Positions 20,352 to 62,542 of a stretch of 64,000 bases of DNA are shown here, one piece after another; the first letter of the stretch is position 1; each line of letters starts with the position of its first letter. Under the pieces are notes generated by a model. That model searched no databases. It saw nothing but the letters and a program-made list of their open reading frames with translations, and was not told where the DNA came from. The stretch comes from Gammaproteobacteria bacterium (GTDB lineage Bacteria > Pseudomonadota > Gammaproteobacteria > CBDBNL01 > JAAOII01): assembly GCA_965209035.1 (NCBI GenBank), contig OZ242372.1, positions 1,440,001 through 1,504,000 on the forward strand, in the 5' to 3' direction. The translations under genes and the position numbers were made by a program.

Positions 20352-23300
20352 TTATTCGGAGCCGCCCACCCGAACCTCCAGTCCGATCGTGCAGATGTTG
20401 CTTTCATTCGGCACCGGATCGTTTTGGACTTGATCTTCATCGGCTTCCGTGCAGGCACCATAATAGTAGGTGCCGGCATCGTTCGGTGCCGTTATATTAA
20501 TGGAATAGGACCCTTCGCCGCCCGGAGTTCCCCCGGCAGGCCGTTCTTGAGTTCCCAACTCAAAATCATCCGGACTAATGAGCGCATTATCGGAGCGGTA
20601 GAAACTGATGATGGACGGAAAACAAGAGGCACTTACCACGCAATCAAAATCAACGCTAATATTAAGCATTTCCTCGGTTGCCGGCGAACTGCTATTGACT
20701 TCCAAATTTTCCAAGACATAGTTACCGCGCTTTGTCACCTGAACGGGGACTGAGCAGTCTTCCGGCAGGTGTTCAAAACAACTGCCGTAATAGTAGGTTC
20801 TTGCTGCCAGACCCGGGAGCTCGTTAATTTCGCTACTATAACTGGCATTATCATAGTGATTCGGCGCTGATACGGAGAAAAAACTTCCTGCTATGGGATC
20901 CTCGCTGCCGTTGATGGTCTCATTATTGGAGCGGTAAAAGGATAAGGAACTTGGACTCAAACCGCAGTCGCCGCCGCGACAACCGACCATTCCGCTGAGA
21001 CGAAAAACATTCGGCAAGTTTTCACCGAGGGCGAGGCGATTCAAGGCTGAATCAAAACGAAAAGTGTTGGCAGTGGAATTAGTCGTGCCGATATGCCGCA
21101 GCAGACCTTTCACCGTAACAGGAACAGAATCGTGTTGGGTGCAAACCGGGGGATTGGTGCCGTCTATACAGGCGAAGTAATAATAGTTGCCGTTCGTTGC
21201 GGCGGCATTAATCCGCGTTGAAATAGTCCGGCTTGCACCGGCGGCAAGAGGAGCAACCGGGACAGGAGATCCAATGGTTTTCATATTCGCATTGGAAGGC
21301 AGCGGAGGGTCAGAATATGTGCTACTAACATAAAAGCTAACATCGGCCATTTCACAGTCTTGGGTGTTCGCGGAACAAAGGATCTCAACCGAGAGGTTTA
21401 GCGGTTCTCCCTGTGCGGCAAGACTGATATTTGTTATGACCCGCTCATCATTAAAAGACAGAACCCCGTCCGGCAGGCTCACTGTGATGGTGGCAATTTT
21501 TACACAGCTGTCGTCATCTCCCGGCAAACAAAGACCATAATGATAGGTGCCGGGGGTCAAAGGGGCGGTTGTGTCAATTGGCGGTGTGGAATGGTGTCTG
21601 CTCTCCTCGATGGCGGGGATAAGAGTACTGCCTTCTTCGTCATCCGAAGTGTTTATCGTATCATCATCCGAACGATACAAAATCACTTGAGATTGGGCAC
21701 AAGGACCGTCCTCACAGAAGAGGAACGCCATAAATTCCAAAGAATCACCCGCGCGAATACCGTCTTTGTCTTGATTGGGGCCTACGAAAGTTAAACGACC
21801 GGGATTAGCGGGTGGCATGAGATCTGTTAGGACAACCGGATCGGACAGCATACCGCACAGATCCGGTTCGGGGCCGGTGATGCAAGCAAAATATCGATAG
21901 GTCCCTGCTTCGGACGGAGTCGTAATATCCGGGGTAACGGTTTGTTCTCCGCTGTCATTCAACGGAGGAACGGGAACCGGTTCGCCAAGAGGATTATCGA
22001 AAAAAGTATTTAACTGACCCTGAGTAGCATAAAACTGAAGGGTGTCGCCGGCACAATCGCCGCCACTGCAAGAGATGGCGACGGACAATTGCAAAGGATC
22101 ACCCGAGTTCAAGGCGGTTGCATTAACGCCGACCTTCCCGACAGACAACATTCCGATCACGGAGGGTATAGTCACCATTAAAGATTCGGAAAGATTAGGC
22201 AGAGAAGGAGGGGTCAGGCAATCATTCGCTTCCAATAAAATACAAATAAAATATTGATATGTGCCCGCCTCTTGCGGAGTGTTCGTATTCAAAGAGATCA
22301 TCATAGATCCTCCGTCCGTCAAGGGCCCAACATCTGCCGCAGGGCCGATAGCAGCTGACATCCGGGTGAGTTCACCTTGGGTGTTTGTGTCTTCATAAGT
22401 GACATAAAATTGAGCCGTTGCCGCCGCGCAGTCGCCGCCAGCGCAAAGAATGGTTGCGGTTAATTCCAAAGGCACGCTTTGGCCGGCCTGTGCGTTACTG
22501 ATATCTATTGTCGTCGCTCCGTCCGGTCGCAGAGTCCCGGCTGCCGAACCCGGCGGCGCGGGGACTGCCGTCACGGTGATCTCAGCCGATGGACCACTGC
22601 AGACATTCGTGTTTTCATAACATGCATGGTATCCGTAAGTCCCGCTTACGCCGGGTATGTCAAAGTCAGTGGCATTCACCGTAACTGTATCTCCGCCTTC
22701 CGGGTTTGTGGGAGAAGTGACATCGAAGGGCGGACCGACCGCGGTTCTTTCGCCCGCGTTCGTGCTTCCCGTCGTCCCCGGTGCGGATGTCCGATAAAAC
22801 TGAACCCGGCGAATTCTGTCCACCGGGCAGACCGCACCCTGACATAGGATGTTTACGGACAACACCGCATCTTCTGTTGTCGTATATTCATTCTTGTCGG
22901 TCGTAACATTGTCGCGAAAAATAACAAAAGGCTCATTGACAGAAAGAGAACTAACAGGAGAACACGCATCGTCAATACAAGAATAGTAATAATAGCCGTT
23001 ATTTCGTGTGACAGGCAAGGGGGGAGCGAAGGTGATGGGTATCTCATCGCCATTAACAAAAAGAGCGGGAAAACTTCTTCCCAATTCCTCATCATTGGCA
23101 GCAACCGTCACATTATTTGTCGAGCGATAAAAAGTGACGATAAAATCGCGACAGAAGTCTATCAAACATCGGACAGTGGTATTCAAAGATACCAGATTAC
23201 CGGGACCGCCTTGTTGTAGAGCGGTATTCAATTCCACTTGCGGAGGAATAGGGGGATTGTCGGCATTGTCATCGGGATCGGCACAGCCGGTTACAAACAA

Positions 23301-23495
23301 AGCGGCTGTCAATAGAAAAATAAATGAAAAATTCCTTAATCCCGGCCGGAGGCCGGGATGGAAGGAATTAGTTACAAAGCGGCTGATGCGCTTATTATTA
23401 TTGTTATTAATGTTATTTGGCATGAGTTGTTTATTGATTATTTGTTGTTTTTTTAATGACTTCTTTTGTAAAGAATAATATGTATCCGCAGGCAA
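20352..23495 (-). CDS. large Cys-rich surface lipoprotein with 8 tandem CARDB/Ig-like domains
   Basis: Lipobox-like FVTGC after a hydrophobic stretch; 8 repeats of C-x4-6-C...FY(R/V)S...P...GTY.Y.AC..C; exact start uncertain. Confidence 0.7.
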   Translation of the reverse strand: MPADTYYSLQKKSLKKQQIINKQLMPNNINNNNNKRISRFVTNSFHPGLRPGLRNFSFIFLLTAALFVTGCADPDDNADNPPIPPQVELNTALQQGGPGNLVSLNTTVRCLIDFCRDFIVTFYRSTNNVTVAANDEELGRSFPALFVNGDEIPITFAPPLPVTRNNGYYYYSCIDDACSPVSSLSVNEPFVIFRDNVTTDKNEYTTTEDAVLSVNILCQGAVCPVDRIRRVQFYRTSAPGTTGSTNAGERTAVGPPFDVTSPTNPEGGDTVTVNATDFDIPGVSGTYGYHACYENTNVCSGPSAEITVTAVPAPPGSAAGTLRPDGATTIDISNAQAGQSVPLELTATILCAGGDCAAATAQFYVTYEDTNTQGELTRMSAAIGPAADVGPLTDGGSMMISLNTNTPQEAGTYQYFICILLEANDCLTPPSLPNLSESLMVTIPSVIGMLSVGKVGVNATALNSGDPLQLSVAISCSGGDCAGDTLQFYATQGQLNTFFDNPLGEPVPVPPLNDSGEQTVTPDITTPSEAGTYRYFACITGPEPDLCGMLSDPVVLTDLMPPANPGRLTFVGPNQDKDGIRAGDSLEFMAFLFCEDGPCAQSQVILYRSDDDTINTSDDEEGSTLIPAIEESRHHSTPPIDTTAPLTPGTYHYGLCLPGDDDSCVKIATITVSLPDGVLSFNDERVITNISLAAQGEPLNLSVEILCSANTQDCEMADVSFYVSSTYSDPPLPSNANMKTIGSPVPVAPLAAGASRTISTRINAAATNGNYYYFACIDGTNPPVCTQHDSVPVTVKGLLRHIGTTNSTANTFRFDSALNRLALGENLPNVFRLSGMVGCRGGDCGLSPSSLSFYRSNNETINGSEDPIAGSFFSVSAPNHYDNASYSSEINELPGLAARTYYYGSCFEHLPEDCSVPVQVTKRGNYVLENLEVNSSSPATEEMLNISVDFDCVVSASCFPSIISFYRSDNALISPDDFELGTQERPAGGTPGGEGSYSINITAPNDAGTYYYGACTEADEDQVQNDPVPNESNICTIGLEVRVGGSE
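23330..23369. other. inverted repeat/hairpin in the 5' leader of the CARDB-like lipoprotein gene
   Basis: aattcctt-a-atcccggcc-gga-ggccgggat-gg-aaggaatt. Confidence 0.6.
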
Positions 23496-23593: not shown

Positions 23594-23667
23594 TGTATGG
23601 CCCCACCCATTTCCGGACTTTTGTTGTTTTTGCAAAAACCGGATCGGCGAGAGTTGTTTGTGAGTGT
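23594..23667 (-). mobile_element. isolated right-end fragment of the IS481-family element
   Basis: tgtatggccccacccatttccggacttttgttgtttttgcaaaaaccgga... nearly identical to 43949-44023. Confidence 0.8.
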
Positions 23668-23697: not shown

Positions 23698-24709
23698 TTA
23701 ATTATTGAGCAGGCGTGTGAGTTCTTCGTTCGGCCAGGTGTAATAGTTGTTCAGGTATTTGATCGCCTTTTCCCGTTCTTCGTTTCTTGCGTGTGTTGTG
23801 TAGTTACCCGGATTGCGATCGCCGATGCTGTCGGTATTGCTTTTGTGAAGGCCCGCAGCTTCGTTCGGGTTCAAACCCAAAAAACAGAGCGTCTTTTTGG
23901 CAACCGAGATCGGGTCGGCAAAGAGCTCCTCACTGCGAAGCACGAGAAGTTGTTTGTTGGGAAAGAGTGTCCGATATCTTTGCAGTTGCTTGGCATAAAG
24001 ACCGCGCTCTCGGTAGGCAAACAGCCGCAGGATATCATAGTCGCGCGGCGAGCTCGGCTCCTTCTTGCAGTGTCCGCACGGCGGCAAGTACGCGCGGGTC
24101 CTCGCCGGTAAGAGCCTCAAGAATGCCGCGCGTTTCTCGCACAGATTCCGCCACTTCCGGCTGCGGGGTCTTCGGGGATGGATAGCCCCGGGTTGCATCA
24201 TAATCCCGGTCCCGGTTGCAATTAAAGTAGTAATCGGAGATTGCCCGCTTTGTCGGATCCTTGATGAGAACAATTAACTTGGCAGCCGGTATCAGTTTAT
24301 GAATGGCGGCCGCACAACCGGGAAAGAACAGATAGTTGACCGACTTGTCCGGGCGGACGGGGTATTGTCGTAACCGCGCTTTCCGAATTCCCCGGCTGTA
24401 GAGCAGCAAGTAGAGCAGCAAGTAGTGAATTGCTCTCGCAGTGTCTGCGTCCGTCTTGTTCAGCCCCCAAACAGGCGACATGCACAATTGCGAAAAGTGC
24501 TCCGCATCCGCCCAACGGTCAAAAAAGCGGATCTCATCGCTGTGTTCGGGTGCGTAAACGGCCGGATGTTGCATGAGAAGTGTTTTTAGCTGCCCGGTGC
24601 CGCAGCGTTTCCCGCCCAAAATAAAAGTATTTGGCAAGAGAGCATTCCAGCCGGGCGGCGGGGGCAAGGGCACGCGGTCAATAAGACGATACCCAATAAG
24701 AAAGAGCAC
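23698..24709 (-). pseudogene. sulfotransferase (heparan-sulfate 3-O-ST-like fold), split by a frameshift
   Basis: 5' ORF 24035-24709 has PNTFILGGKRCGT, EIRFFD, KLIVLIKDP.KRAISDY; 3' ORF 23698-24273 continues RGLYAKQL..Y...F...QLLVLRSEEL...FLGL...YYTWPNEEL. Confidence 0.8.
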
Positions 24710-24895
24710 AGGGAAGATAGCGCAGTATATAGCGAGCGCGCAAAAATCGGTGGTGTGTTGTCAACATCTTAAAACCGAGTTATTATATCCTTTCCGAGAT
24801 GATGCGGGTCTTTTTGAAAACAACACTCACAAGTGCCTAACGGGGGCAAACAAACATACACATAGTTATCCAAAATTGTTTATAATGGACAACAT

Positions 24896-27133
24896 ATGAA
24901 ATTAAAGGTCGGGCTTTTTTGTGTTCTAGCCCTTACCGCTTTTAGCGGCTGTGCGCAGGTAGAAGATGCAACTTTATCGATCCCCGCCCGGGATAATCAA
25001 GCTACTTCTTCCATGTCCCTGGCTATTCCGATGCGAGAGGGTATGCGATTGGAATGGACGAATCCGTCCGATGCACAGATCTCGGGCAATATTGAGAGGT
25101 TTAACATATCTTGGGAAAGGCTGTCCGACAATGAAAAGGATATGGTTGATAAGTCGAATCAAACGGGAGCGGGAGTCGATGCTTCTTATGATTTCGCCAA
25201 CTTAACGGATGAGGAGGAGCATCAGTTTCTTGTGCGCGCGATAATTTCGGGTGAGGATCCTATTCTTGTTTTGAATCTGACCGCAATGACCGGAGCAAAT
25301 TACGACGGTGATGGCGAACCGGACTCTTCGGATGATGACGATGACAATGACGGTGTACTTGACGCTACTGATCTCTGTGCCACAAATGCGACAGACTGGA
25401 CATCCAATTCCACTACGGACTATGATGGCGATGGTTGCCGTGATAGTGACGAGGACTCGGACGATGACAATGACGGTGTACTTGACGCTACTGATCTCTG
25501 TGCCACAAATGCGACAGGCTGGACATCCAATTCCACTACGGACTATGATGGCGATGGTTGCCGTGATAGCGACGAGGACCCGGACAATGACAGTGACAAT
25601 GACGGTGTACTTGATGCTACCGATCTCTGTGCCACAAATGCGACAGACTGGACATCCAATTCCACTACGGACTATGATAGCGATGGTTGCCGTGATAGTG
25701 ACGAGGATCCGGACGATGACAATGACGGTGTACTTGACGCTACCGATCTCTGTGCCACAAATGCGACAGACTGGACATCCGATCCCACTACGGACTATGA
25801 TGGCGATGGTTGCCGTGATAGTGACGAGGACACGCCGATCTTTGAGCAAGACTCTTATGCTTTTGAGTTTCCGCCGGGCAGAACCGGTAGGATCAACGAG
25901 GTCACCGTTCGTAATCCTGTTACGGCGTTTGTGTTGGGAGGAATGACGACAAACCTAACCATCGACACACAAGTGCAAACAGGAGTTCTTTCCGCCGTTG
26001 GGGTATTAGCTGCCGGCGTGTATATGTTGCATGTTAATGCGAGCAACGCAGTTGGCGAGACCCGGGCGAACATCACTTTAAATGTGACGGACACGCCTAC
26101 AATGCAGCCGGTCTTTTCGCGAGAACGGACGGTGATTCGTTTGTCCCCCGGTGATACTTACACCGGCGAACCGAACCTGTTCTTTCAAGATTCTGTTACG
26201 ATTGCCGAGGCCGAGTATGGCGGCGAGAAGGTTCCGGGTCGCGGCAATTTTACCGAGCTTGGTGATATTTTCGGTTTTGACGCCGCCGGGAACTTTTCAA
26301 TCAATCAGTCGATTGATGTGTCTGACACCCGCGGGCTATTTTTACGCATTAATGCAAGCAACAGCACGGGTGAATCCGAAGCCTTTGTTCATATTTTGGT
26401 TACGGATCCAAGCAATCGCACTTTGTATTTTGCAAGTGACGGCAGTGTTGAGACCATTGGCGAGGTGCACCCGGTGATGCCGGACAATGCCACACGCCGT
26501 TTTAACATTACGTCCGGGAATCAAACACTTTTTGGTATCAATAATACCGATGGTACACTGTCAGTCCAAGATGCCCCGCAGGACCGGACGCACTATTTGG
26601 GAATTGAAGAAGAATATGCGGGAGGAACCCGGTTCTTTGCCAATGTAACGGTGTTTGGCAAGACACCCGACGGCGGGAACATAACGCATTATGTCTATTG
26701 GTTGGCGGAAAACGAATGGTTGAAGCCGGATCGCAGTGAAGCCTTGCCGAATATTAATGCCTCTGCGGGAGATCAACTGGTGTTTCTCTGCCCGCGCCCG
26801 ATGTTGGCAACGGCATTTCCCGGCCCCAATATTTGGTATACCCAAAACAGGACGGTTGCGGATAACTGCCGGCCGGATCGGTTTGCCGAAGCCGCCCAAG
26901 CGTTTTTTATCGGGGCATGCGACGCAGCCGGCAAAGAAATCACAGTTCCTTTAGAAGTTCCTTTGGACGCCGGCAATCCCGTTCGGTTTGAAGCGGACAA
27001 TTCTTATTACTTGATGTCCTTTTCGGGTGGGGCAGAGGAGGAAACTACTTCCCGCGAGTTCAAGACGGGTGCAGCCTGTCAGTCCGGGATGAAGTTCCGG
27101 TTAAATGTATTGCCGCCTAACATGTCGCCTTAG
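24896..27133 (+). CDS. modular lipoprotein: FN3-like domain, Asp-rich TSP3-like Ca-binding repeats, cadherin/Ig-like stalk, C-terminal ephrin-like domain
   Basis: Lipobox FSGC at residue 19; LEWTNP FN3-like motif; 4 x 41-aa D-rich repeats; C-terminal VYW...GDQLVFLCP...C...C...F....SYYLMS..G...GAAC..GMKF. Confidence 0.8.
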   Translation: MKLKVGLFCVLALTAFSGCAQVEDATLSIPARDNQATSSMSLAIPMREGMRLEWTNPSDAQISGNIERFNISWERLSDNEKDMVDKSNQTGAGVDASYDFANLTDEEEHQFLVRAIISGEDPILVLNLTAMTGANYDGDGEPDSSDDDDDNDGVLDATDLCATNATDWTSNSTTDYDGDGCRDSDEDSDDDNDGVLDATDLCATNATGWTSNSTTDYDGDGCRDSDEDPDNDSDNDGVLDATDLCATNATDWTSNSTTDYDSDGCRDSDEDPDDDNDGVLDATDLCATNATDWTSDPTTDYDGDGCRDSDEDTPIFEQDSYAFEFPPGRTGRINEVTVRNPVTAFVLGGMTTNLTIDTQVQTGVLSAVGVLAAGVYMLHVNASNAVGETRANITLNVTDTPTMQPVFSRERTVIRLSPGDTYTGEPNLFFQDSVTIAEAEYGGEKVPGRGNFTELGDIFGFDAAGNFSINQSIDVSDTRGLFLRINASNSTGESEAFVHILVTDPSNRTLYFASDGSVETIGEVHPVMPDNATRRFNITSGNQTLFGINNTDGTLSVQDAPQDRTHYLGIEEEYAGGTRFFANVTVFGKTPDGGNITHYVYWLAENEWLKPDRSEALPNINASAGDQLVFLCPRPMLATAFPGPNIWYTQNRTVADNCRPDRFAEAAQAFFIGACDAAGKEITVPLEVPLDAGNPVRFEADNSYYLMSFSGGAEEETTSREFKTGAACQSGMKFRLNVLPPNMSP
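25337..25830 (+). repeat. 4 near-identical in-frame repeats (123/129-bp period) encoding DNDGVLDATDLCATNATDWTSNSTTDYDGDGCRDSDED
   Basis: gacaatgacggtgtac at 25343, 25466, 25595, 25718. Confidence 0.95.
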
Positions 27134-28093
27134 GAGAACGCCTCTTAGTTAGAAGGAAGAACGATAAAGAACAACTAACGCCGAGTAATTGGAGGTAATT
27201 GGCATCACCGGCACCATAAAGGTAAAAACTTCCAGTCGTCCAATCTTCCCGGCAAGATCGCAAACGACAAAAGAATCTTAACCGGGTTACTCATTCCATC
27301 CCGGCGTAGTTGTGCGCCGCCTCGCCCTCGCCTTAGGAGAAGGCCGCTTAGTTAGAAGGAAGAACGATAAAGAACAACTAACGCCGGGTAATTGGAGGTA
27401 ATTGGCATCACCGGCACCATAAAGGTAAAGACTTTCGGTCGTCCAATCTTCCCGGCAAGATCGCAAACGACAAAAGAATCTTAACCGGGTTACTCATCCC
27501 GGCATAGTTGTGCGCCGCCTCGCCCTCGCCTTAGGAGAACGCCTCTTAGTTAGAAGGAAGAACGATAAAGAACAACTAACGCCGAGTAATTGGAGGTAAT
27601 TGGCATCACCGGCACCATAAAGGTAAAGACTTTCGGTCGTCCAATCTTCCCGGCAAGATCGCAAACGACAAAAGAATCTTAACCGGGTTACTCATTCCAT
27701 CCCGGCGTAGTTATGCACCGCATCGCCCTCGCCTTAGGAGAACGCCTCTTAGTTAGAAGGAAGAACGATAAAGAACAACTAACGCCGGGTAATAGGCATC
27801 AGCAGCACCATAAAGGTAAAAACTTCCAGCCTCCCCGGCAAGATCGCAAACGACAAAAGAATCTTAACCGGGTTCCTCATTCCATCCCGGCGTAGTTGTG
27901 CGCCGCCTCGCCCTCGCCTTAGGAGAACGCCTCTTAGTTAGAAGGAAGAACGATAAAGAACAACTAACGCCAGGTAATAGGCATCAACAGCACCATAAAG
28001 GTAAAGACCTCCAGCCTCCCCAACAACATCGCAAACGACAAAAGAATCTTAACCGGGTTACTCATCTCGGCATAGTTGTGCGCCGCCTCGCCC
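27125..28093. repeat. 5-unit tandem array (203, 198, 203, 185, 180 bp) of the trkH 3' end plus intergenic spacer
   Basis: Units start tcgccttaggagaa at 27125, 27328, 27526, 27729, 27914; the last unit is the intact trkH terminus. Confidence 0.95.
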
Positions 28094-29400
28094 AAGGCGG
28101 GCCCCAGGTTGTTGAGCATTGCGATGGTGACAGACCAGGCGGTGATATGGCTGCTGCCGCTAACCAGCAGCAACGACAGGACCACAAAGAAAACAAACAG
28201 GTAAACGGCGCAAAAACCCCAGACCGCATCCAGAACCCTGCCGGAAACACTGGTATTGGCAAGACGCACATTGAACATACCGTGAGGATGCACCACCCGC
28301 TTGCATTCGCGATAGCCTTGCTTGATGACCAAAAGAAACCGAATCGCCTTGATACCGCCGCCGGCGGAGCCGGCACAACAACCCACTATGGCAAAAGTGA
28401 ACAGAAAGAAAAGAAGCCCAAACGGAAAATTGTTGTAGTTTTGCAAGGTGAACCCTGTGGTGGTGACGATGGAGAGGCTTTGGAAGAGAACGGCGACGAG
28501 CGAGTCGTAGCCGGTGATGCGCGGCAGTGAAATTAGGACGCTAAAAGTGAGGAGGATAAAGATCCAGAGAGCAAAGAATTTCCATTCCGGGTCGGTGAAA
28601 TAGGGGCGCAGGCTCTTGCGCCGCCACACATAAAAGTGCAGGGAGAAATTCATCGCCGAAAGAAGCATAAAAAATATTGCCACCCATTGAATTTTGCTAT
28701 CGGTAAAATGCCCAAAGTTGTTATCATGCGGCGTAAAACCGCCGATGGACACCGTGGAAAAGCCGTAGTTGATCGCTTCAAAAACAGTCATTCCCGCCAA
28801 GCGATAGGCGAGGATGCAAAAAAGCGTCAAGATGATGTAGATCACCCAAAGGAACTTTGCCGTCTCCGTGATACGCGGTGTCAGTTTGGTATCTTTCACG
28901 GGACCGGGAATTTCGGTGCGGTAAAGTTGCATGCCGCCGACACCAAGCAAAGGCAAGATCGCAATTGCCAACAGGATAATCCCCATCCCGCCGATCCACT
29001 GTAAAAACTGGCGGTAAAAAAGAACGGACGGCGGCAAAACGGAAACCTTCTCATAAATGGTTGCGCCCGTGGTGGTGATACCGGACATGGCTTCAAACCA
29101 GGCATCGGTAAATGTGAGAGGGTGATCCAAAAACAAGAACGGCAGGGTCGCGCCGAGTGTTATGAACAGCCAAGAGGATATGGTAATGATAATGCTATCG
29201 CGCGGTTTGAGGTGGCGTGTTTCGCCGCCGGAGCATCCCCACAGTAATAATCCGACCAGGAGTATGACGAGCATTGCCTTAAAAAAAGCGAAATGGGCAC
29301 CGTCTTGAAAGTAAAAAGAAAACAACAGAGGCGCGGTCAGTGACAGACAAAACAAAGTTAAAAGAGTGCCGAGCACCCGGGCGACAAAACGCAGGGACAT
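27964..29400 (-). CDS. trkH: Trk system potassium uptake permease
   Basis: FEAMSGITTTGAT, QWIGGMGII, STVSIGGF, GSAGGGIK, NNLGPALG, MLLGRLEVFT. Confidence 0.96.
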   Translation of the reverse strand: MSLRFVARVLGTLLTLFCLSLTAPLLFSFYFQDGAHFAFFKAMLVILLVGLLLWGCSGGETRHLKPRDSIIITISSWLFITLGATLPFLFLDHPLTFTDAWFEAMSGITTTGATIYEKVSVLPPSVLFYRQFLQWIGGMGIILLAIAILPLLGVGGMQLYRTEIPGPVKDTKLTPRITETAKFLWVIYIILTLFCILAYRLAGMTVFEAINYGFSTVSIGGFTPHDNNFGHFTDSKIQWVAIFFMLLSAMNFSLHFYVWRRKSLRPYFTDPEWKFFALWIFILLTFSVLISLPRITGYDSLVAVLFQSLSIVTTTGFTLQNYNNFPFGLLFFLFTFAIVGCCAGSAGGGIKAIRFLLVIKQGYRECKRVVHPHGMFNVRLANTSVSGRVLDAVWGFCAVYLFVFFVVLSLLLVSGSSHITAWSVTIAMLNNLGPALGEAAHNYAEMSNPVKILLSFAMLLGRLEVFTFMVLLMPITWR

Positions 29401-29476
29401 TTATTGTTTGTGTAAGCGGGGGAGTGTTATTAAGTGATCAGTGATAAGCGCTAAGTCCTAAGTTCGAGGACGGAAT

Positions 29477-31132
29477 CTATACGGGCGGACGCAGAGAAAC
29501 GGGTTTCAAACCTTTTATGACAACTTCCGACTTGGTCACTCGGATATCCTCGGGGGACGGCGGATTCTCGTTGAAGTCATAGTAAACCTGCCATTGGCCG
29601 GCCTCGGCAAGACGGAAGTAATCGGCGGCGGCTTGCCGCGTCGCCCGTTGTTTTTTGGTGCCGCCGGCAAGTTTCTTTTTGCCGATGCGTTTGGCATACA
29701 GTCGCTTTGCCAGACGCGGCGAGTAAACCACGGCTGTGGCATTGTTTCCGCCAAATCCCTTGGCATTGATGAGCGCGGCTTCCGGGCATTCTTCCGCCAG
29801 CGGAAGATGTTGTAAAACAAACGCCAGACGGTCTTGGCTGACATCTTCGGCAAGTTGCTCCACTGTGACGATGCCCGGCAGAATGCCGTATCGCCAAACA
29901 CCCAACGCGACCGCCAGTTGATCGCCACCGGCGGCCGCTTGCGAATGACCGACAAAGGATTTGATGGCGACCACCTTCCAATCGGCAATGCCGAACGCGC
30001 CGGCTACGGCGGAAAAAATGCGCGATTCGGTCACCCTGTTTTGCGGTGTGGAAGTGCCGTGCGCGAGGATGTATGATTTCTTTTGCAGAATTTCGGCACC
30101 CTGTTCGGCCGCAAGAGCCGCCGCCGCTCTGCCGACCGTGATGTAATTGCCGGGACCGGGCGAAGAGATAGATCGCTTCACCCCATCCGCATGCACGAAG
30201 ACATCACCGACCATACCAAAAACTGTGGCGCCGGTTCGATGCACCGCTTCTTCGGATGCCAAAACAACGAACTGCGCCGATTCGCCCATCACAAATCCGT
30301 GGTTGTCGCCAAAAGGCATTGCCGCATGTGCCATCTTCCTGTCGCCCAGGGCGGAGTTGCCGATCATCGCGCCCATGTTGTAAAAGGCGGCGATGACCGA
30401 AGAAAGAATGGGGGCCTCGCTTGCCCCGACAAACGCCAAATCGGTCTCGCCCTGTTTGATGTCCGCGGCGGCCGCGGCCAGGTTATACAAAAAAGTGGCA
30501 CAGGCGCCGCAGTGGTTTCCGGTCCGTCCCACATTATTTAAGATATAAGCATTGACAAAGTCCGCGGCCATTTGCGGGTAACTAAAAGGCAAGTTTTTGG
30601 TAATTATTTTTTGCTTTCTCAGTTCCGCCGTCAGGACGCCGCCCATGCCCCGGTCATCCAACTGCCCGAGAGCACTGCCCGCATAAACCGAGATGCGTTC
30701 CGGCGCCACCGCTGCCCTTAGCGCTGCCGGTGTCAGTCCCGTAGAGTTGATGGCGTCGGCTGCGGCAAATACCGCCATTTGTAAGCCGCGCGGATGATGG
30801 CGAGAAGGATAATGGTCGCCCGGCTGAAAGCCGGCGGCCAAACCTGCGGCAAAACCTACCGGAAAGGGTTCGGGTTTGCCGTTCACCCGATAATAGGGGG
30901 CTGTGTTGGTATTAAAGTGCGTATCTTTGTGGATCGGCCGGATAAAACTGGCGGCGCGCACTTCCCGGCCATTGAGTTTCCCGCCGGTTAACGCGCTCAA
31001 AGAGGCAAGAAGTTTTTCTTGCTCGGCCGTGCCGAGGGCGGGGAATACCATATTGCGGTATCCTTGACAATTGGAAGAGATGCCCGCGGAATTCATACCG
31101 CCGTAACCGATAATGAGTGGAAGGTGTTTCAT
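29477..31132 (-). CDS. fabY: beta-ketoacyl synthase, FabY-type (KAS I/II fold)
   Basis: LPLIIGYGGMNSAG.SS, YPSRHHPRGLQ, GACATFLYN, AHGTSTPQNRVTES, GHSQAAAGGDQ, KGFGGNNA. Confidence 0.85.
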   Translation of the reverse strand: MKHLPLIIGYGGMNSAGISSNCQGYRNMVFPALGTAEQEKLLASLSALTGGKLNGREVRAASFIRPIHKDTHFNTNTAPYYRVNGKPEPFPVGFAAGLAAGFQPGDHYPSRHHPRGLQMAVFAAADAINSTGLTPAALRAAVAPERISVYAGSALGQLDDRGMGGVLTAELRKQKIITKNLPFSYPQMAADFVNAYILNNVGRTGNHCGACATFLYNLAAAAADIKQGETDLAFVGASEAPILSSVIAAFYNMGAMIGNSALGDRKMAHAAMPFGDNHGFVMGESAQFVVLASEEAVHRTGATVFGMVGDVFVHADGVKRSISSPGPGNYITVGRAAAALAAEQGAEILQKKSYILAHGTSTPQNRVTESRIFSAVAGAFGIADWKVVAIKSFVGHSQAAAGGDQLAVALGVWRYGILPGIVTVEQLAEDVSQDRLAFVLQHLPLAEECPEAALINAKGFGGNNATAVVYSPRLAKRLYAKRIGKKKLAGGTKKQRATRQAAADYFRLAEAGQWQVYYDFNENPPSPEDIRVTKSEVVIKGLKPVSLRPPV

Positions 31133-31298: not shown

Positions 31299-33615
31299 TT
31301 ACCGGCCTTGTGCCGAGAGGCCGCCCGGCATGCAGTTCAGGGCGGGGTATTGGCTGCTTGTGCCAAGATCCCAGACGCTTAAGAATCCGGCCGGCCGGGC
31401 ATCCACTTCCATCACTTCGCCCGTGTCCGGATCACACCAGATGCCTCCCCAGTTGGCATAGATGCTCCCGGCAAACTCGGTCGGCGATTGTAAGTCTGTC
31501 GTGCTATGACCCTCGCCCAAATTACCGGCACTCGTAGTCCGGTTGGTGGTTTCAGTATCCCAATAGGAGGCATTGACGAGAACAAGATCGAAGATAGAAC
31601 CGATCAAACCGCCCGAAGTACCGGAACTTGCAACTTGCCCGGGGGCGGCATAAGAATAACGAAGATCTGTTTGCGATGCCCCTGTCCCGATCAGTCCGCC
31701 AACATTATCATCCCCGGAAATAACTCCGCCGGACACATAGGCATAGCGAATAGTCCCTCCCGTTACTTCTCCAATCAGTCCGCCAACATCCTGACTCCCG
31801 GAAACAACTCCGTCGGACACATAGGCATAGCGAATATTCGGAGGTATTGCTCCCCCGATCAGTCCGCCAACATTCTGACTCCCGGAAATAACTCCGCCGG
31901 ACACAGTAGCATAGTGAATTTCAGAACCTCGACCCCGCCCAACCATGCCGCCAACCATGCCGCCAACGAAATCATCCCCGGAAACAACTCCGCCGGATAT
32001 ATTGACATGGCGAATTTCAGTACTATGACCATCCCCAATCAGACCACCCGCGTCCTCGGCGTTCGGACTCATCACACTGCCACCCGTAACCGACAGGTTC
32101 TCATAACGGGCATTCCTGCCATAGCCTGCCAGTGTGCCCACATCACCGGCACCGCCACTGACATTCGCATTCAGGAGATGCAGATTTTGGATGCCGCCGG
32201 TTAAGGCGCCAAACAACCCCACTCCATTGACAGTGTTATTCGCAGAAATGAACAGATTGGCAAGAGTATAACCGCCGCCGTCAAAGATTCCCGTCCAAGA
32301 GGTGCAAACATCTCGGGCGGAACAAGAGCCGATCGGCTGCCAGCCGCTGCCGCTGCGATCTGTCCAGGCATCCATATTAACGTTGCCTGTGTTATAGGAA
32401 TCCGCATCGTTAAAATTCAACGAGCGAGTCAATTCATAACCCACACAGCCGCCGTCATCCGGGCCCGGACAGCCCTCAGTGCCCACAGAGGTGATCTCGT
32501 CAATATTGCCATCATCCGTCCCATCGCCGTTCAGATCATCGCGCAGTAGGGCTAATTGATCCAAATTGTGAATTTCTATAAGGCTATTATTATTGTCATC
32601 CACATCCTCCGCGTCGTCTATACCGTCATCATCATCATCTTCGTCACAGACATCACCGCCGTCCTTCGCACCGTCCGTGTTGGCTTGGTCCGCATTGTGA
32701 TCCAACGGGCAGTTGTCCGCCGCCGTGGTTGCGTTTTCTACATCCGGAAAACCATCATCGTCATCGTCCGTATCTTCCGTCAAGGTCGATGTCGTGCAAC
32801 CCGGAACAATACTATCCGGCTTGCTGTCATTATCCGTGTCGGTACTCGCACATACATCTTTCGGAAACGCATCCGTTTCATCCGGAACTTCATCATTGTC
32901 ATCATCAGGATCACAGGCGTCACCGCCATCATCGGCATTGTCCGTATTGGTTTGATCCGAATTGGCAACCGACGGACAATTATCTTCCGTGTTCGGCTGA
33001 TCATCAAGATCCAGATCCGAGCCTATGCCTTGACCCGCTCCGGTTGTGCCGGACACAGAAGAGGACGTCACGGCATTGTTGTTGTTTTCATAAAGCACCG
33101 CGATCGTGATCCGGTAGGCGGTGTTATTGGTTAGATCCATAATGTTGTAGATGACTCGACTCTCAGGCTTCAGCAAATCAGCAACAGGGGTCCGCAGCCG
33201 CACATCGGCGGCACGCAGGATCATCATTTCCTTATCGCTCGCATCGGCGACATTGAACCAAGTAATATTGAACTCGGTGATATTTTCCTGATCCGGATTG
33301 GTCCAACCCACGAGAATATGATCCGCCCCGACCAGAGTCTGAATCTTGGAAACAGCGAGGAGATTAGAGGGGGGGGGGGGGGGGGGAGCTGTTGCCGCCA
33401 CCGCAACTTGCCAGGACCAAACCGAACAACCCCGTCAGCAGCAGACCGTAAAAACGAGTCGGTATGTGCATCCGTCGTGCCTTATTGGGTTCGGGAAAAG
33501 TCTTAAAAGCATTAAGAGTATTAAGGAAGCGTGCAGATACCGTGCCTCTTTGTTCGCGGCGCATTGCTATTGCCGGCCGCACAGGAAAAAAGTGTAACTT
33601 ATGCATTGTTTTCAT
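31299..33615 (-). pseudogene. FN3-like/TSP3/GLUG-repeat surface lipoprotein, frameshifted in a C18 tract just after the lipobox (possibly phase-variable, OFF as assembled)
   Basis: ORF 33364-33615 carries the signal peptide LLLTGLFGLVLASC and stops after the tract; ORF 31299-33401 carries the body (VGWTNP, DNCP, LIEIHNLDQL, VGGLIG repeats, WDLG..QYP.LNC). Confidence 0.85.
33369..33386 (+). repeat. G18 homopolymer (C18 on the coding strand)
   Basis: 18 consecutive G counted; 17 or 20 would restore the frame. Confidence 0.9.
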
Positions 33616-56891: not shown

Positions 56892-59627
56892 ATGAGAAAT
56901 AACTTGAACTTTCACACTGTTCGGTCGGCAAAAGAAACATTCGACCGGCGGTCACGCCCGGCATTCGCCCGGGGCCTTAATACTACTTTTAATACCGAGA
57001 TGTCTTTTGGCGGGCGGGTTGCATTGCATGCATCGCCGCCAAGGGCCGCCCTTAATCCTATTTTGCGGCGAACGCCGCGACAATCTCGTTCATACATATA
57101 TACCGTTCTGCTGACGGGCATGCTGGGCTTTGCTTTGCTCCTGGCCGGCTGTGGCGGCGGTGGTGGTGGCGGTTCCGGTGGCCCCGGTGGTCCCGGTGGC
57201 CCCGGTGGCCCCGGTGGCCCCGGTTCCGGTGGTGCCTCTCTTCCCGGCGTTTCCAACCTAAAAATTATTCCGGCCGAAGAAAGGTTGCGGCTCAGTTGGA
57301 CCAATCCGAATCGTACCGATATCAGCGACTTCAGGATCAGTTGGGTGAGTACGACTCCGCCCAAATCAGACTCGAAACTTACCGGAGATGCGGCGAATAA
57401 GACCGCCCTGGCGATGACGAGCTATGTGCTTGATAACTTGACAGACGGTATCGATTACACGGTCAGCGTGTCCATCCTGTATGAAGGCGGCGGCGTATCC
57501 GGGGTGGTCCCGGGTTCGATGAGTCAGCCCGGGAAAAACACGGACGGTGATGCCCTGCCGGATAGTCTGGATCCGGACGCTGACAATGATGGTTTTCCGG
57601 ATGTGGCAAACGCGACCACAGCCGCGGACAACTGCCCCTTGACTTACAATCCAAAACAAGCCAACACGGACAAGATGCTGCCGGGTGGTGGCGATGCACT
57701 AGGCGATGTCTGTGACCAGGACGATGATAATGATGGTTTTCCGGATGTGGCAAACGCGACGACGCCGGCGGATGTGGATGGCAATGGTAATGGCCTCATA
57801 GAAATCCGTTATTTGGATGACTTGGCGCAGCTGCGCGGCGATCTGAATGGCGAGGGGGATGATGATGATGAGAATGACGGGATTACCGCGGTGGGCACTG
57901 CGGGCTGTCCGAGTTTCGGCTGTAAGGGTTACGAACTGACCCGCACGCTGAATTTTAGCGATCCGGATTCTTATGCCGACGATGTGGTCAATACTGCCTG
58001 GACGAGTGGCAGCGGCTGGCAGCCGATCGGATCCTGTTTTTTCAATATGAGTTGTCCTCTTACCTATACGGCTGTGTTTAATGGCAGAGGTTATGTTCTT
58101 GCCGATCTGTTCATTTCTGCGGCTAATAGTGCCCGCGGAGTGGGTTTGTTCGGCGCGTTCAACGGCACCCTTCAAAATCTGCATCTCCAAAATGCAAATG
58201 TCCGTGGCGGTGACAGTGATCTGGGTGCGCTGGTAGGCAAGGGCAGGCGGGGGCGTTATGAGAATCTGTCGGTTACGGGTGGCAGTGTGAGGAGTGCGCG
58301 TGCCGACAGAGTGGGCGGCCTGATTGGGGATGGTGAAGAGTCTGATATTCGCTATGCCAATGTGTCCGGTATCGATGTTGCCGGAGTTAGAGATGTTGGC
58401 GGCCTGGTCGGGAATGGTCGGCGGTCTAATATTGGTGATGCCGGCGCGTCCGGCACAGGTGTTACCGGCACCAGAATTAATGTCGGCGGTCTGGTTGGAG
58501 ACGGGGAGAATTCTATTATTCGCTATGCCCGTGTATCGGATGGATCTGTTTCCACACCCGGCGGCACCTCCAATGTCGGCGGTCTGGTCGGGAATGGCCG
58601 GTATTCTAATATTCATGATGCCCGTGTGTCCGGCATCACTGTTGCCGGCAGAAGAATAGTTGGCGGCCTGGTCGGGAATGGTCAGTATTCCAATATTCGT
58701 TATGCCGAGGTGTCCGGCGCAAGTGTTGCCGGAACCGGTCGTACCGGTGGCGGTAATATCGGCGGATTGGTTGGAAGTGGGGAGAATTCTAATATTCGCT
58801 ATGCCCATGTATCGGACGGCGATGTTTCCGGACGCATCAGAGTTGGTGGCTTGGTTGGGGGTGGCCAGCTGGTTAATATTAGTTATGCCGGTGTATCCGG
58901 CGTAGATGTTGTCGGCACCGAAAATAATGTTGGCGGTCTGGTTGGGCTTGGTAATTATGCCAGAATTGGCTATGCTTATGTGCTCGGCGGAAGTGTTGAG
59001 GCGAATCGGGTTGTTGGCGGCCTGGTTGGGGATGGAACGAATACTCTGATTTATTATTCTTATGCCGCCAGCGGGGAAGTTTCGGCTTCGGCTATGTCCG
59101 AACCTATTGTTGGTGGCATGTTCGGCCATGCCTCTTATGGCGAACCCGATGCCAGCAGTCTCAGGTGTGTTGATAATGTTACTTATTTGGCGGAAGTTTG
59201 TGCGTTCAATCCGGCAAGTCTCGCCTGTGTTCCCGGTGCTATTCATTTAGAGGCGGAAGTGTGCTACATAAACACAACAAATCCCACTTATGATGATTCC
59301 GATGCCACCGATGCCATTGATTCCTATTGGGATACGGAAACTACCGGGCAGGCAACCAGTGCCGGCAGAGACGGCAGGCGCGGCGCGGGCAAAACGACCG
59401 CGGAATTACAAAACCCGATTATGTTCACAGGCATCTATGCCGACTGGGGCAACTTCTGGTGTGATCCAAGGACGGGCGATGAGATAATAAGCACCTCCCC
59501 TTCCTCTTTGCCCGCCCCTTATGTTCGTGTCTGGGATCTGGGCGCCGCCGACCAATACCCCGTCCTGAACTGCCTGCCTGTCAGTGCAGAACAGCAGCAA
59601 GAAGAACAACAACAGCAGCAGCAGTAG
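56892..59627 (+). CDS. FN3-like/TSP3/GLUG-repeat surface lipoprotein (paralog A)
   Basis: Lipobox LAGC followed by Gly/GGP linker; LSWTNP; DNCP; GLIEIRYLDDL; many VGGLVG repeats; WDLG..QYPVLNC; poly-Q tail. Confidence 0.85.
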   Translation: MRNNLNFHTVRSAKETFDRRSRPAFARGLNTTFNTEMSFGGRVALHASPPRAALNPILRRTPRQSRSYIYTVLLTGMLGFALLLAGCGGGGGGGSGGPGGPGGPGGPGGPGSGGASLPGVSNLKIIPAEERLRLSWTNPNRTDISDFRISWVSTTPPKSDSKLTGDAANKTALAMTSYVLDNLTDGIDYTVSVSILYEGGGVSGVVPGSMSQPGKNTDGDALPDSLDPDADNDGFPDVANATTAADNCPLTYNPKQANTDKMLPGGGDALGDVCDQDDDNDGFPDVANATTPADVDGNGNGLIEIRYLDDLAQLRGDLNGEGDDDDENDGITAVGTAGCPSFGCKGYELTRTLNFSDPDSYADDVVNTAWTSGSGWQPIGSCFFNMSCPLTYTAVFNGRGYVLADLFISAANSARGVGLFGAFNGTLQNLHLQNANVRGGDSDLGALVGKGRRGRYENLSVTGGSVRSARADRVGGLIGDGEESDIRYANVSGIDVAGVRDVGGLVGNGRRSNIGDAGASGTGVTGTRINVGGLVGDGENSIIRYARVSDGSVSTPGGTSNVGGLVGNGRYSNIHDARVSGITVAGRRIVGGLVGNGQYSNIRYAEVSGASVAGTGRTGGGNIGGLVGSGENSNIRYAHVSDGDVSGRIRVGGLVGGGQLVNISYAGVSGVDVVGTENNVGGLVGLGNYARIGYAYVLGGSVEANRVVGGLVGDGTNTLIYYSYAASGEVSASAMSEPIVGGMFGHASYGEPDASSLRCVDNVTYLAEVCAFNPASLACVPGAIHLEAEVCYINTTNPTYDDSDATDAIDSYWDTETTGQATSAGRDGRRGAGKTTAELQNPIMFTGIYADWGNFWCDPRTGDEIISTSPSSLPAPYVRVWDLGAADQYPVLNCLPVSAEQQQEEQQQQQQ

Positions 59628-60004: not shown

Positions 60005-62542
60005 ATGAGAAATAAGTTGAACTTTTATTCTGTTCGGTCGGCAAAAACAACATCCGACCGGCTGGTGCGCCCGGCATTCGCCCGGGACCCTAATACTACT
60101 TTTAATACCGGCCTAAATTCAAGGTTGTTTGGCGGGCGAGTTGCATTGCATGCATCGCCGCTCACGGCCGTCCTTAATCATGTTTTGAATCCTGTTTTGC
60201 GGCGAACGCAGCGACAATCTCGTTCACACATACATACCGTTCTGCTGACGGGCATGCTGGGCTTTGCTTTGCTCCTTGCCGGCTGTGGCGGTGGCGGCGG
60301 TGGTGGCGGCAACGGCGTTGATGACCGTGCTGTTTCCAATGTTCAAACTATAGTCACCGGGAATAATATTACCGTGCGTTGGACCAATCCGGAGCAAGAG
60401 AATATCACCGGGTTCACTATTAATTGGGTCAATGTTGGCGATGATGCCAATGCGAGCGATAGCGGCGAAAGGGCACTTAATGCTTCTCTGGCGAATGTTG
60501 CGGCGGGTGCTTCGGATAATACATATCAGATTACGAATCTGGACTATGCTGCCACCTATCGCATCACAGTGACGGTGCTTTATGCGGATCAAGATCCCGC
60601 GGCTTCGGCTCCGACTTCCGTTCATCAAGCCATGACCGGGATGGATCCGGATAACCCCGTTGTTCCTCTCGATCCTGCGGCTGTTTCCAATGTCCAAGCA
60701 ACGGTCACCGGGAATACGATTACCGTGAGTTGGACTAATCCAAACCGGGAGGGTATCACCGGGTTCAATATTACTTGGATCAATGTTGGCGATGATGCCG
60801 ATCCGACCGATCGCAGAGACATAGTACTTACTGATCCCCCGGCTAATGTTGCGGCGGGTGCTGATAATACGGACACCATTACGGATCTAACCTATGCTGC
60901 CACCTATCGCATCACAGTGACGGTGCTTTATGCGGGGCAAGATCCCGCCGCTTCGGGTCCGGTTCAAAGATCGGTAACGATTGATCAGGACCTGACTGAT
61001 ACAGATGATGATGGTGTGGTGGATGCGGATGATAACTGCCAATCGGTGGCGAATCCGGATCAGCTCAATAGCGATACGGATGCGTTAGGCGATGCCTGTG
61101 ATGATGACGATGACGAAGATGGCACACCCGATACGACGGATGTGGATGACAATGATAATGGCCTCATAGAAATTCGTTATTTGGATGACTTGGCGCGGCT
61201 GCGCGTTGATTTGAATGGCGATGGGACGGCTGAGCGATCTGTTACCGGGATTACCGCTGTGGGGTCTGTGGGCTGCCCCGCTAACGGAGGCTGTATCGGT
61301 TACGAACTAACCCGTTCGCTCAATTTTAGCGATACGGCTTCCTATAATGCGAGCAGCGTTAATGTGGGTGTCTGGACAGAACGCAGCGGCAGCGGCTGGA
61401 ATCCGATCGGCTTCTGTTCTAGCGACACTGATTGCACCGCTTATACGGGTATGTTTGATGGTCAGGATTGGACGCTTGCCGATCTGTTCATTGATGCGGA
61501 TACTACTGTGAACGGAGTGGGCTTATTTGCTGCGTTCAACGGCACCCTTCAAAATCTGCATCTCCGAAATGCGGATGTCCGTGGCGGTGACAGTGATCTG
61601 GGCACTCTGGTAGGCAATGGCAGGCGGGGGCGTTATGAGAATCTGTCGGTTACGGGCGGCAGTGTGATGAGTGCGGGTGCCGACAGAGTGGGCGGACTGA
61701 TCGGGGATGGTGAAGAGTCTGATATTCGCTATGTCAGTGTGTCCGGCATCACTGTTTCCGGACAGATCAGAGTTGGTGGCCTGATTGGGAATGGCCAGTC
61801 TGTTAATATTAGTTATGCCGGTGTATCCGGCGTAGATGTTACCGGAACCCAAAGTAATGTCGGCGGTCTGGTTGGAGACGGGGATAATTCTAATATTCGC
61901 TATGCCCATGTATCGGACGGAGATGTTTCCGGACAGACCAACGTTGGTGGCCTGATTGGGAATGGCCAGTCTGTTAATATTAGTTATGCCGGTGTATCCG
62001 GCGTAGATGTTACCGGAACCGGAAATAATGTCGGCGGTCTGGTTGGGATTGGTAATTCTGCTGAAATTCGCTATGCTTATGTGTTCGGCGGAAGTGTTGA
62101 GGGTGAACGGAATGTTGGCGGCCTGGTTGGGGATGGACCGCTGGCTGTGATTGACTATTCTTATACCGCCAGCGGGGAAGTTTCGGCTTTGGCTATGGTC
62201 TCACCTAATGTTGGTGGCTTGCTTGGTGCTGGCTCTCCACGCAGGGTCACTGCTTCCTATTGGGATAGGAACACCACCGAGCAGTCTGCGAGTTCCGGCA
62301 GCGACGGCAGACGCGGCGAAGGCAAAACGACCGCGGAATTACAAAACCCGATCACTTTTTCCGGCAGTATCTATGCCGACTGGGGCAACTTCTGGTGTGA
62401 TCCGGATACGGGTGCTGAGAGCGTAGCGGATACCCGTCCGGCCGGATTCGAAAGCGTCTGGGATCTGGGCGCCAACAACCAATACCCCGTCCTGAACTGC
62501 CTGCCTGTCAGTGCAGAACAGCAGCAAGAACAACAGCAGTAA
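60005..62542 (+). CDS. FN3-like(x2)/TSP3/GLUG-repeat surface lipoprotein (paralog B)
   Basis: Same architecture as 56892-59627 with a duplicated FN3-like domain (VSNVQ...WTNP...YAATYRITVTVLYA x2). Confidence 0.85.
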   Translation: MRNKLNFYSVRSAKTTSDRLVRPAFARDPNTTFNTGLNSRLFGGRVALHASPLTAVLNHVLNPVLRRTQRQSRSHIHTVLLTGMLGFALLLAGCGGGGGGGGNGVDDRAVSNVQTIVTGNNITVRWTNPEQENITGFTINWVNVGDDANASDSGERALNASLANVAAGASDNTYQITNLDYAATYRITVTVLYADQDPAASAPTSVHQAMTGMDPDNPVVPLDPAAVSNVQATVTGNTITVSWTNPNREGITGFNITWINVGDDADPTDRRDIVLTDPPANVAAGADNTDTITDLTYAATYRITVTVLYAGQDPAASGPVQRSVTIDQDLTDTDDDGVVDADDNCQSVANPDQLNSDTDALGDACDDDDDEDGTPDTTDVDDNDNGLIEIRYLDDLARLRVDLNGDGTAERSVTGITAVGSVGCPANGGCIGYELTRSLNFSDTASYNASSVNVGVWTERSGSGWNPIGFCSSDTDCTAYTGMFDGQDWTLADLFIDADTTVNGVGLFAAFNGTLQNLHLRNADVRGGDSDLGTLVGNGRRGRYENLSVTGGSVMSAGADRVGGLIGDGEESDIRYVSVSGITVSGQIRVGGLIGNGQSVNISYAGVSGVDVTGTQSNVGGLVGDGDNSNIRYAHVSDGDVSGQTNVGGLIGNGQSVNISYAGVSGVDVTGTGNNVGGLVGIGNSAEIRYAYVFGGSVEGERNVGGLVGDGPLAVIDYSYTASGEVSALAMVSPNVGGLLGAGSPRRVTASYWDRNTTEQSASSGSDGRRGEGKTTAELQNPITFSGSIYADWGNFWCDPDTGAESVADTRPAGFESVWDLGANNQYPVLNCLPVSAEQQQEQQQ

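Follow-up and report, generated by a model that had tools for sequence, protein, structure and literature searches.

An ephrin-domain homolog at the end of a stalked lipoprotein in a gammaproteobacterium

Signalling between ephrins and Eph receptors is characteristic of contact between animal cells. The DNA studied here (the window) is a stretch of 64,000 nucleotides from a Gammaproteobacteria bacterium (assembly GCA_965209035.1, contig OZ242372.1, positions 1,440,001 to 1,504,000), and one gene in it, at 24896-27133 on the forward strand, raises the question of whether a bacterial protein can end in an ephrin receptor-binding domain. If so, it has to be asked how the domain came there and what it may bind. 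The original prediction, made from the letters alone, described this gene as a bacterial surface lipoprotein tipped with an ephrin-like domain. The gene is a single uninterrupted open reading frame (ORF) of 745 amino acids. Its translation contains the predicted string at 26687-27113 (+), running from HYVYWLAENEW to MKFRLNVL (residues 598-739), and each of the quoted motifs, GDQLVFLCP, VADNC, FIGAC, RFEADNSYYLMSFSGG, and AACQSGMKFRLNV. As set out below, the protein is a bacterial lipoprotein of surface type carrying a real, well-supported ephrin-domain homolog. The architecture and the lineage are new. The finding is not new in kind because bacterial ephrins have already been published for Endozoicomonas.

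The C-terminal ephrin domain

The last ~145 residues of the protein are very probably a true, highly diverged homolog of the ephrin receptor-binding domain (residues 597-739; 26684-27112, +). The assignment comes from Pfam, profile matches in the PDB, a reciprocal search, and predicted folds. The Pfam family Ephrin (PF00812), whose curated cut-off is 25 bits, matches the C-terminal 160 amino acids with 28.6 bits (E 1.5e-6) over positions 5-140 of the 140 in the model. It finds the same place with 27.7 bits in a six-frame search of the whole genome, and a relative of the protein (P0003) scores 27.2 bits. Ephrin is the sole family listed for the 160-aa piece; no cupredoxin family (Cu_bind_like, Copper-bind) matches it at a Pfam E-value of up to 10.

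The reciprocal search used a profile (A1) made of four bacterial domains, namely that of the window, its paralog in the same genome, and two metagenome relatives. Searched against 1.84 billion representative proteins, A1 has 11 matches at E<=0.001. Six of these belong to the bacterial family or are its fragments, including P0015, a protein of the related genome G004. Three others, P0013, P0014, and P0011, score as Pfam Ephrin with 125, 97, and 48.5 bits, and P0010, a 116-aa fragment counted with the bacterial family, has 24.2 bits. The remaining matches P0008 and P0012 are repeat proteins, which were judged spurious by eye and kept out of the alignments. Against the PDB, A1 finds 13 sequences at E<=10, and the best 10 are without exception ephrin-B2 (E 0.008-0.016), their cysteines matching those of the profile; the single sequence of the domain finds no PDB match at E<=10 with phmmer. 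A broader profile (A2) retrieves 16 proteins of near the same length and 30 longer ones. All of them carry a precomputed PF00812 match except P0015 and the fragment P0007, both of the bacterial family; where a protein has a name, it is that of a rotifer, mollusc, or annelid ephrin. P0035 and P0036, which have the same score and length as P0034, were omitted from alignment A3.

The predicted structure agrees with the profiles. With a 46-row alignment, AlphaFold gives a model with pLDDT 77.9 and pTM 0.78, and Foldseek lists ephrin chains at ranks 1-30 for this model (TM 0.6-0.74 on the target), with plastocyanin and azurin next in the list at a TMq of at most 0.43. The alignment held ephrin rows, which biases the model to the ephrin fold. 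For this reason a low-confidence control model built from the four bacterial rows only (pLDDT 56.7) was also searched, and its Foldseek ranks 1-30 are again ephrins. VIA-align, which was run without Foldseek against 48,161 representative chains, scores ephrin-A1 with Z 12.7 (two entries) and ephrin-B1 with Z 12.2; the phytocyanins reach Z 9.2-8.7 and all other non-ephrins 7.8 or less. Phytocyanins and bacterial cupredoxins (mavicyanin, stellacyanin, azurin, and plastocyanin) share with the domain the Greek-key beta-sandwich superfold (Z 9.2-6.6), but their structural scores are lower than those of ephrins, and they differ from it in the type-1 copper ligand set (His, Cys, His, Met/Gln), which the domain here lacks. 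The predicted fold is cupredoxin-like with ephrins as its nearest relatives, ahead of phytocyanins. Sequence profiles and fold searches agree on the ephrin family, and the call made in the original prediction holds.

Krishnan et al. (PMC6485061) give as hallmarks of ephrins two disulfides, four conserved aromatic residues, conserved loop lengths, and loss of the copper site. The disulfides join Cys1 to Cys3 and Cys2 to Cys4 (C51-C92 and C80-C140 in 3CZU_B), and the aromatics W25, F120, Y126, and Y127 lie near the interface loops (PMC6485061). The presence of all four ephrin cysteines, which had been read from the sequence, is borne out by the alignment. They are residues 644, 670, 687, and 740 of the protein, or C47, C73, C90, and C143 of the 160-aa piece, where they form nearly invariant columns of the 46-row alignment and are aligned with the cysteines of ephrin-B2. 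W17, F113, Y119, and Y120 of the piece occupy the columns of the four ephrin aromatics, which are kept in part only in the paralog and in the G004 protein. With a single histidine in its 160-aa piece, the domain cannot form a type-1 copper site. The more specific claim of a B-type ending fared less well. Ephrin-B2 is indeed the only type among the PDB sequence matches, but the fold fits A and B types equally, so that a B-type identity cannot be established.

Genomic context, distribution, and history

Could an animal sequence have entered the contig by error? If host DNA had been joined to the bacterial contig, or if it were a contaminant, the architecture would be an artefact of assembly, and the public unitigs agree with this in that they break at repeat arrays on both sides of 25802-27154 and none runs from the ephrin domain into trkH. 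The read support also comes from three public runs of one sample, which may itself be the source of the assembly (no RNA run is among those listed). The breaks, however, are confined to the two repeat arrays. Between them, the unitig at 25802-27154 links the bacterial Ig-like spacer to the ephrin domain with 0 differences, in frame and without introns. Its depth in the three runs (10.7, 31, and 24) equals that of the flanking housekeeping genes (12.1, 33.9, and about 31 for the unitig with trkH and the beta-ketoacyl synthase gene). The gene lies in the neighbourhood of genes for TrkH, a beta-ketoacyl synthase (KAS), GrpE, GAPDH, pyruvate kinase, a branched-chain amino-acid ABC transporter, KARI, PEPCK, and ArgRS. 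The genome totals 2.24 Mb on 2 contigs, the main one of 2.18 Mb, and its completeness is 92.7%.

The same architecture is also found elsewhere. A paralog (P0006, 953 aa) lies 220 kb away in the same genome, and its ephrin-like domain shows 33% identity, with the four cysteines retained. Two independent metagenome proteins carry the same head with 82% and 77% identity. In G004, which represents another genus of the same family, a partial ORF (P0015) matches the domain profile with 38.4 bits. Given the neighbours, the unitig depth, the paralog, the metagenome proteins, and the G004 relative, a chimeric join is very unlikely, and an artefact of any kind is hardly credible. The bacterial context that the original prediction assumed is thus supported by the depth of the unitig, the paralog, and the relative in G004.

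The distribution of the domain is narrow. The lineage is an order with few genomes, and the domain is in none of the sampled relatives outside the family. PF00812 at E<=0.001 was found in none of the 399 other genomes that could be scored in a sample of 400 across the class and in none of 400 genomes sampled across the phylum, and its cut-off is reached in none of 40 relatives. The domain profile matches one of the four other genomes of the family and not the single genome of the sister family. A scan of genome contigs with an ephrin profile and one of metagenome contigs yielded no confirmed relative. In three relatives of the family (G001, G002, and G003), the synteny of the KAS gene and trkH (27964-31132) is conserved and the ephrin gene is absent at the corresponding place. 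The ephrin gene lies at a synteny break, since the genes past the trkH 3' end in these relatives map 590-695 kb away in this genome. The rearrangement breakpoint seen in this comparison falls exactly at the ephrin gene.

A maximum-likelihood tree was built from 46 rows, 40 of them of animal type. Outside these 40 stands a single starred clade (99/97), which consists of five bacterial rows and the 116-aa fragment P0010. The tree is unrooted, carries a long-branch warning, and is biased on its animal side to rotifers and molluscs, with no cnidarian, sponge, vertebrate, Endozoicomonas, or cupredoxin rows. An intermediate branch, between this clade and the animal ephrins, is that of P0011 (355 aa), a protein with a tandem pair of ephrin-like domains.

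The position of the bacterial clade is relevant to a different origin of the domain, in which an old bacterial cupredoxin derivative that had lost its copper converged on the features of ephrins or was ancestral to holozoan ephrins. A clade that is not nested among the animal-type rows would fit such a history, as would the proposal that ephrins derive from monodomain cupredoxins (PMC6485061). It is at odds with the very narrow distribution (none of 399 genomes in the class, none of 400 in the phylum, one of four in the family), with the 11 matches found among 1.84 billion proteins, and with the place of the gene at a synteny break where three relatives have none. The tree itself, being unrooted, with long branches and free of sponge, cnidarian, vertebrate, and cupredoxin rows, is also a poor basis for it. 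A purely bacterial origin of the domain is quite improbable. Horizontal transfer from a holozoan, on the other hand, is likely, and the sequences would fit a single ancient capture with later duplication and divergence.

Architecture, stalk family, and proposed function

The domain is the last part of a layered protein whose predicted order, consisting of a lipobox, an FN3-like module, four Asp-rich TSP3-like repeats, Ig-like spacers, and a C-terminal domain of the ephrin family, is recovered by sequence profiles and fold searches. All of the following parts are on the forward strand. The translation begins with a signal peptide with lipobox at 24896-24952 (residues 1-19, ...LTAFSG followed by C19). 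An FN3-like module (~residues 40-133; 25013-25295) is recognised by homology, as it aligns in phmmer with regions of P0006 and P0003 called fn3 by Pfam (38.5 and 41.5 bits); Pfam fn3 is not among the families listed for the 745-aa protein (P0001) itself. It is followed at 25296-25834 by four Asp-rich thrombospondin-type-3-like units of 41 amino acids (DNDGVLDATDLC...DYDGDGCRDSDED), which TRF reports at 25337-25831 with a period of 123 nt, 4.0 copies, and 93% matches. Pfam TSP_3 gives 11 bits in P0001, below threshold, and 21.1 bits in P0003; NCBIfam throspo3_MtsC gives 35.6 bits on P0001, far below its cut-off.

The spacer between these repeats and the ephrin domain (residues 314-597; 25835-26686) appears to hold about three beta-rich Ig-like modules. 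The leads are weak, namely an Atlas feature score of 0.86 to He_PIG/Cadherin/Big_9 clusters and a match to Pfam FN3_DSCAM at E 0.076. The spacers that had been described as cadherin-like can be kept as Ig-like, with the cadherin identity as a weak lead. The spacer is kept in the paralog P0006 (q 251-742, E 1.5e-117; phmmer). The stop codon lies 6 residues past the end of the ephrin domain, and the anchor is the N-terminal lipobox, from which lipidation of the protein is inferred. Display on the outer surface is somewhat probable. An N-terminally lipidated outer-membrane protein is known in the neisserial azurin (PMC6485061), which resembles the lipobox protein here in this respect.

The scaffold is much more common than the head. 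A phmmer search of six-frame ORFs finds 53 ORFs in the genome that share the FN3 and TSP3-repeat stalk, with a total of 58,498 aa or 7.8% of the genome, and most of them have an L[AT][AG]C-type lipobox. In 48 of the 53, blastp clustering shows another, shared C-terminal head, which Pfam calls GLUG-type in a member of the window at 56892-59627 (+). Further members in the window are 60005-62542 (+) and 31299-33401 (-), the latter with only a weak Pfam fn3 match. The Ig-like spacer together with the ephrin head is found in only 2 stalk ORFs. Stalk matches number 125, 11, 20, and 3 in G001 to G004, that is, in all four genomes of the same family, and 0 in the sister family. Since the stalk is family-wide and the ephrin head is on two ORFs only, the ephrin domain seems to be an acquired module that was added to a display scaffold already in place.

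The stalk proteins are rich in N-x-S/T sequons. The 745-aa protein has 31, compared with 8.3 +/- 2.6 in shuffled sequences, and the stalk family has a median of 1.68 per 100 aa as against 0.36 in other ORFs of at least 300 aa, an enrichment of 3-5x. No preference for Asp or Glu at position -2 is seen in the sequons of the stalk family. Among the genes of the genome is one for an oligosaccharyltransferase of STT3/PglB type, which has a WWDYGY motif (G000:C1:1920753-1921784; L005 1207-3405); no N-glycosyltransferase of GT41/HMW1C type was found. The STT3/PglB-type enzyme is present in all five relatives tested; among 14 control genomes, only the four archaea have it. These sequence features suggest that the stalk lipoproteins may be N-glycosylated surface proteins. 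The combination of sequon-rich lipoproteins with a PglB-type enzyme may offer a further lead, distinct from the ephrin domain, on N-glycosylation in bacteria beyond the usual groups.

The explanation that best accounts for these features, at close to an even chance as a whole, is a captured ephrin head on a stalk lipoprotein that would most likely bind a receptor of the Eph class. An ancestor of this family would have acquired the domain in a single horizontal transfer, most likely, and the domain would then have been joined to the C-terminal end, distal to the cell, of a scaffold already present, with lipid anchor, FN3-like, Ca-binding TSP3-like, and Ig-like parts. Such a fusion would set the head at a distance from the cell, as in a membrane-anchored ephrin, with the polarity of the chain reversed. 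The protein, perhaps N-glycosylated, would be exposed on the outer surface and would bind with its head a receptor on a eukaryotic cell (a host or a grazer), most likely one of the Eph class, leading to adhesion or altered uptake. A target of Eph type is a tentative prediction. The Eph ligand-binding domain (Ephrin_lbd) was not found in the bacterium's own genome, which favours a target outside the cell, and by analogy the hypothesis published for Endozoicomonas is also in favour of an external one.

Several points weigh against this explanation, beginning with the domain itself. Apart from the bias of the better model described above, the whole 745-aa protein scores 23.5 bits on PF00812, slightly below the cut-off, the paralog scores 15.1 bits in the six-frame search of the genome, and the identity to animal ephrins in the 46-row alignment is 17-27%. 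No donor can be named because the bacterial rows lie outside all animal rows and the tree has a long-branch warning. Exposure of a lipoprotein at the surface is not automatic in a diderm. The genome (92.7% complete) has no match for ankyrin repeats or flagellin, and host association is itself conjectural. The remaining points concern the G-H loop. In ephrin-B2, the hydrophobic tip of this loop enters the pocket of the Eph receptor. The equivalent here is LEVPLDAGNPVRFEAD, with a length of ~18 residues as against 17 in ephrin-B2. Its sequence is not conserved, the hydrophobic tip of FSP..LW type being replaced by PLDAGNP. It is also the most variable stretch of the domain, as 10 of its 16 positions vary among three close homologs compared with about a third overall.

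The state of this loop may mean that the head has the same origin and has been repurposed, so that it binds a glycan, another surface protein of a host or prey, or a bacterial cell, and not an Eph receptor. The paralog domain, which is only 33% identical, would fit such a change, as would the use of the ephrin head alongside several other heads in an adhesin-like family of 53 members, and the fact that ankyrin repeats or a similar signal of a host were not found in the genome. A parallel exists in the apicomplexan SRS/SAG1 proteins, which use an ephrin/cupredoxin-like fold, possibly from a metazoan host, as a general surface attachment domain (PMC6485061). These are a different family, and no SRS protein is among the sequence or fold matches listed. 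The four aromatics that flank the interface and the length of the loop are retained, however, and an ephrin core recognisable across two genera suggests constraint. Fast-evolving interface loops would also be expected of a ligand that tracks the receptor of its host. Repurposing of the head is thus quite conceivable, if rather doubtful. The captured, Eph-binding head remains the explanation preferred here.

Compared with animal ephrins (ephrin-B2 1kgy, ephrin-A1 3hei, and ephrin-B1 6thg), the protein shares the domain family and the nearest fold, the four aligned cysteines, the four aromatics, the lack of a copper site, N-x-S/T sequons, and a domain distal to the membrane anchor. In animal ephrins, an N-terminal domain is combined with a C-terminal glycosylphosphatidylinositol or transmembrane anchor, whereas here a C-terminal domain is combined with an N-terminal bacterial lipobox. 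The protein is therefore a member of the ephrin domain family and does not have the architecture of an ephrin ligand. It also differs in the unconserved tip of the G-H loop, in its fusion to FN3, TSP3, and Ig-like modules, and in belonging to a bacterium.

The premise of the original prediction that ephrins are essentially holozoan or animal proteins is overstated, since ephrin genes of Endozoicomonas were published as early as 2016. Endozoicomonas montiporae has two genes with an ephrin ectodomain (EfnB2_1 and EfnB2_2), which are 34-39% identical to Nematostella proteins, lack copper ligands, and are proposed to trigger endocytosis via coral Eph receptors (Ding et al. 2016, PMC4781883). The Endozoicomonas ephrins have been read as horizontal transfers from Metazoa (Arcas et al. 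2019, PMC6993872), and later papers place ephrin genes in clade-B Endozoicomonas only (PMC9743535, PMC12491435). Like these ligands, the domain here is a bacterial ephrin ectodomain without copper ligands. The Endozoicomonas ephrins, as described there, come from coral symbionts with large genomes; they are short, either secreted or in the membrane, and share 31-46% identity with cnidarian ephrins. By comparison, which is by description only, the domain here is much more diverged, forms the head of a 745-aa stalk lipoprotein, is duplicated, and is common to two genera of a small-genome family with no known host.

A search of the open-access literature found no bacterial ephrins outside Endozoicomonas. 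Bacterial ephrins have so far been discussed only for these coral symbionts, and the window adds a second, independent-looking lineage, in which the domain has had time to duplicate and diverge. Its defined display scaffold makes it a tractable recombinant target for the question of ephrin mimicry, and its sequences widen the space available for dating and rooting the ephrin family. A far-reaching combination of these ideas would be that a family of small-genome bacteria keeps and diversifies an anciently captured ephrin as an N-glycosylated 'glyco-ephrin' head, using its lineage-wide PglB-type oligosaccharyltransferase. The head would engage receptors of the Eph class, or similar to it, on an early-branching host or grazer (a sponge, a choanoflagellate, or similar) and so control adhesion or phagocytosis. 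Bolder still, the bacterial clade might mark the source of the holozoan ephrin fold. This is an unlikely construction.

Sequences around the gene and elsewhere in the genome

Two candidate sigma-70-like promoters precede the ATG of the ephrin gene on the forward strand, at 24758-24786 and 24857-24886. Each matches 10 of 12 positions in a consensus scan, and these are consensus matches only. Downstream, the spacer of ~830 bp on the 3' side of the gene consists of a tandem array at 27125-27978, to which no strand is assigned. The array is made of the 3' end of the convergent trkH gene with its terminator-like hairpin (period 185-203, ~4.3 copies, 91% matches) and starts 8 nt before the ephrin stop codon. 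Unitig depth is about 2x at 27039-27572. The array and the ephrin gene are adjacent; a functional link between them is not known.

A short element at ~23605-23664, on the other side of the gene, has a unitig depth of 287-544 in the three runs, compared with 12-34 around it, and many different flanks. It looks like a high-copy dispersed repeat. Next to it, a sulfotransferase appears to be spread over two overlapping ORFs in different frames, 23698-24273 (-) and 24035-24709 (-), with Sulfotransfer_3/1 matches on the 224-aa ORF; it may be a frameshifted pseudogene. An ORF of 1047 aa at 20352-23495 (-), for which no Pfam family is found at E<=0.001, has a lipobox-like N-terminus and about eight Cys-containing repeats of ~110 aa with a recurring '..FYRS..' motif. 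The second contig of the genome (C2, 65.7 kb) has a G+C content of 54.0%, compared with 49.2% in the main contig, and may represent a plasmid, an island, or a wrongly binned piece.

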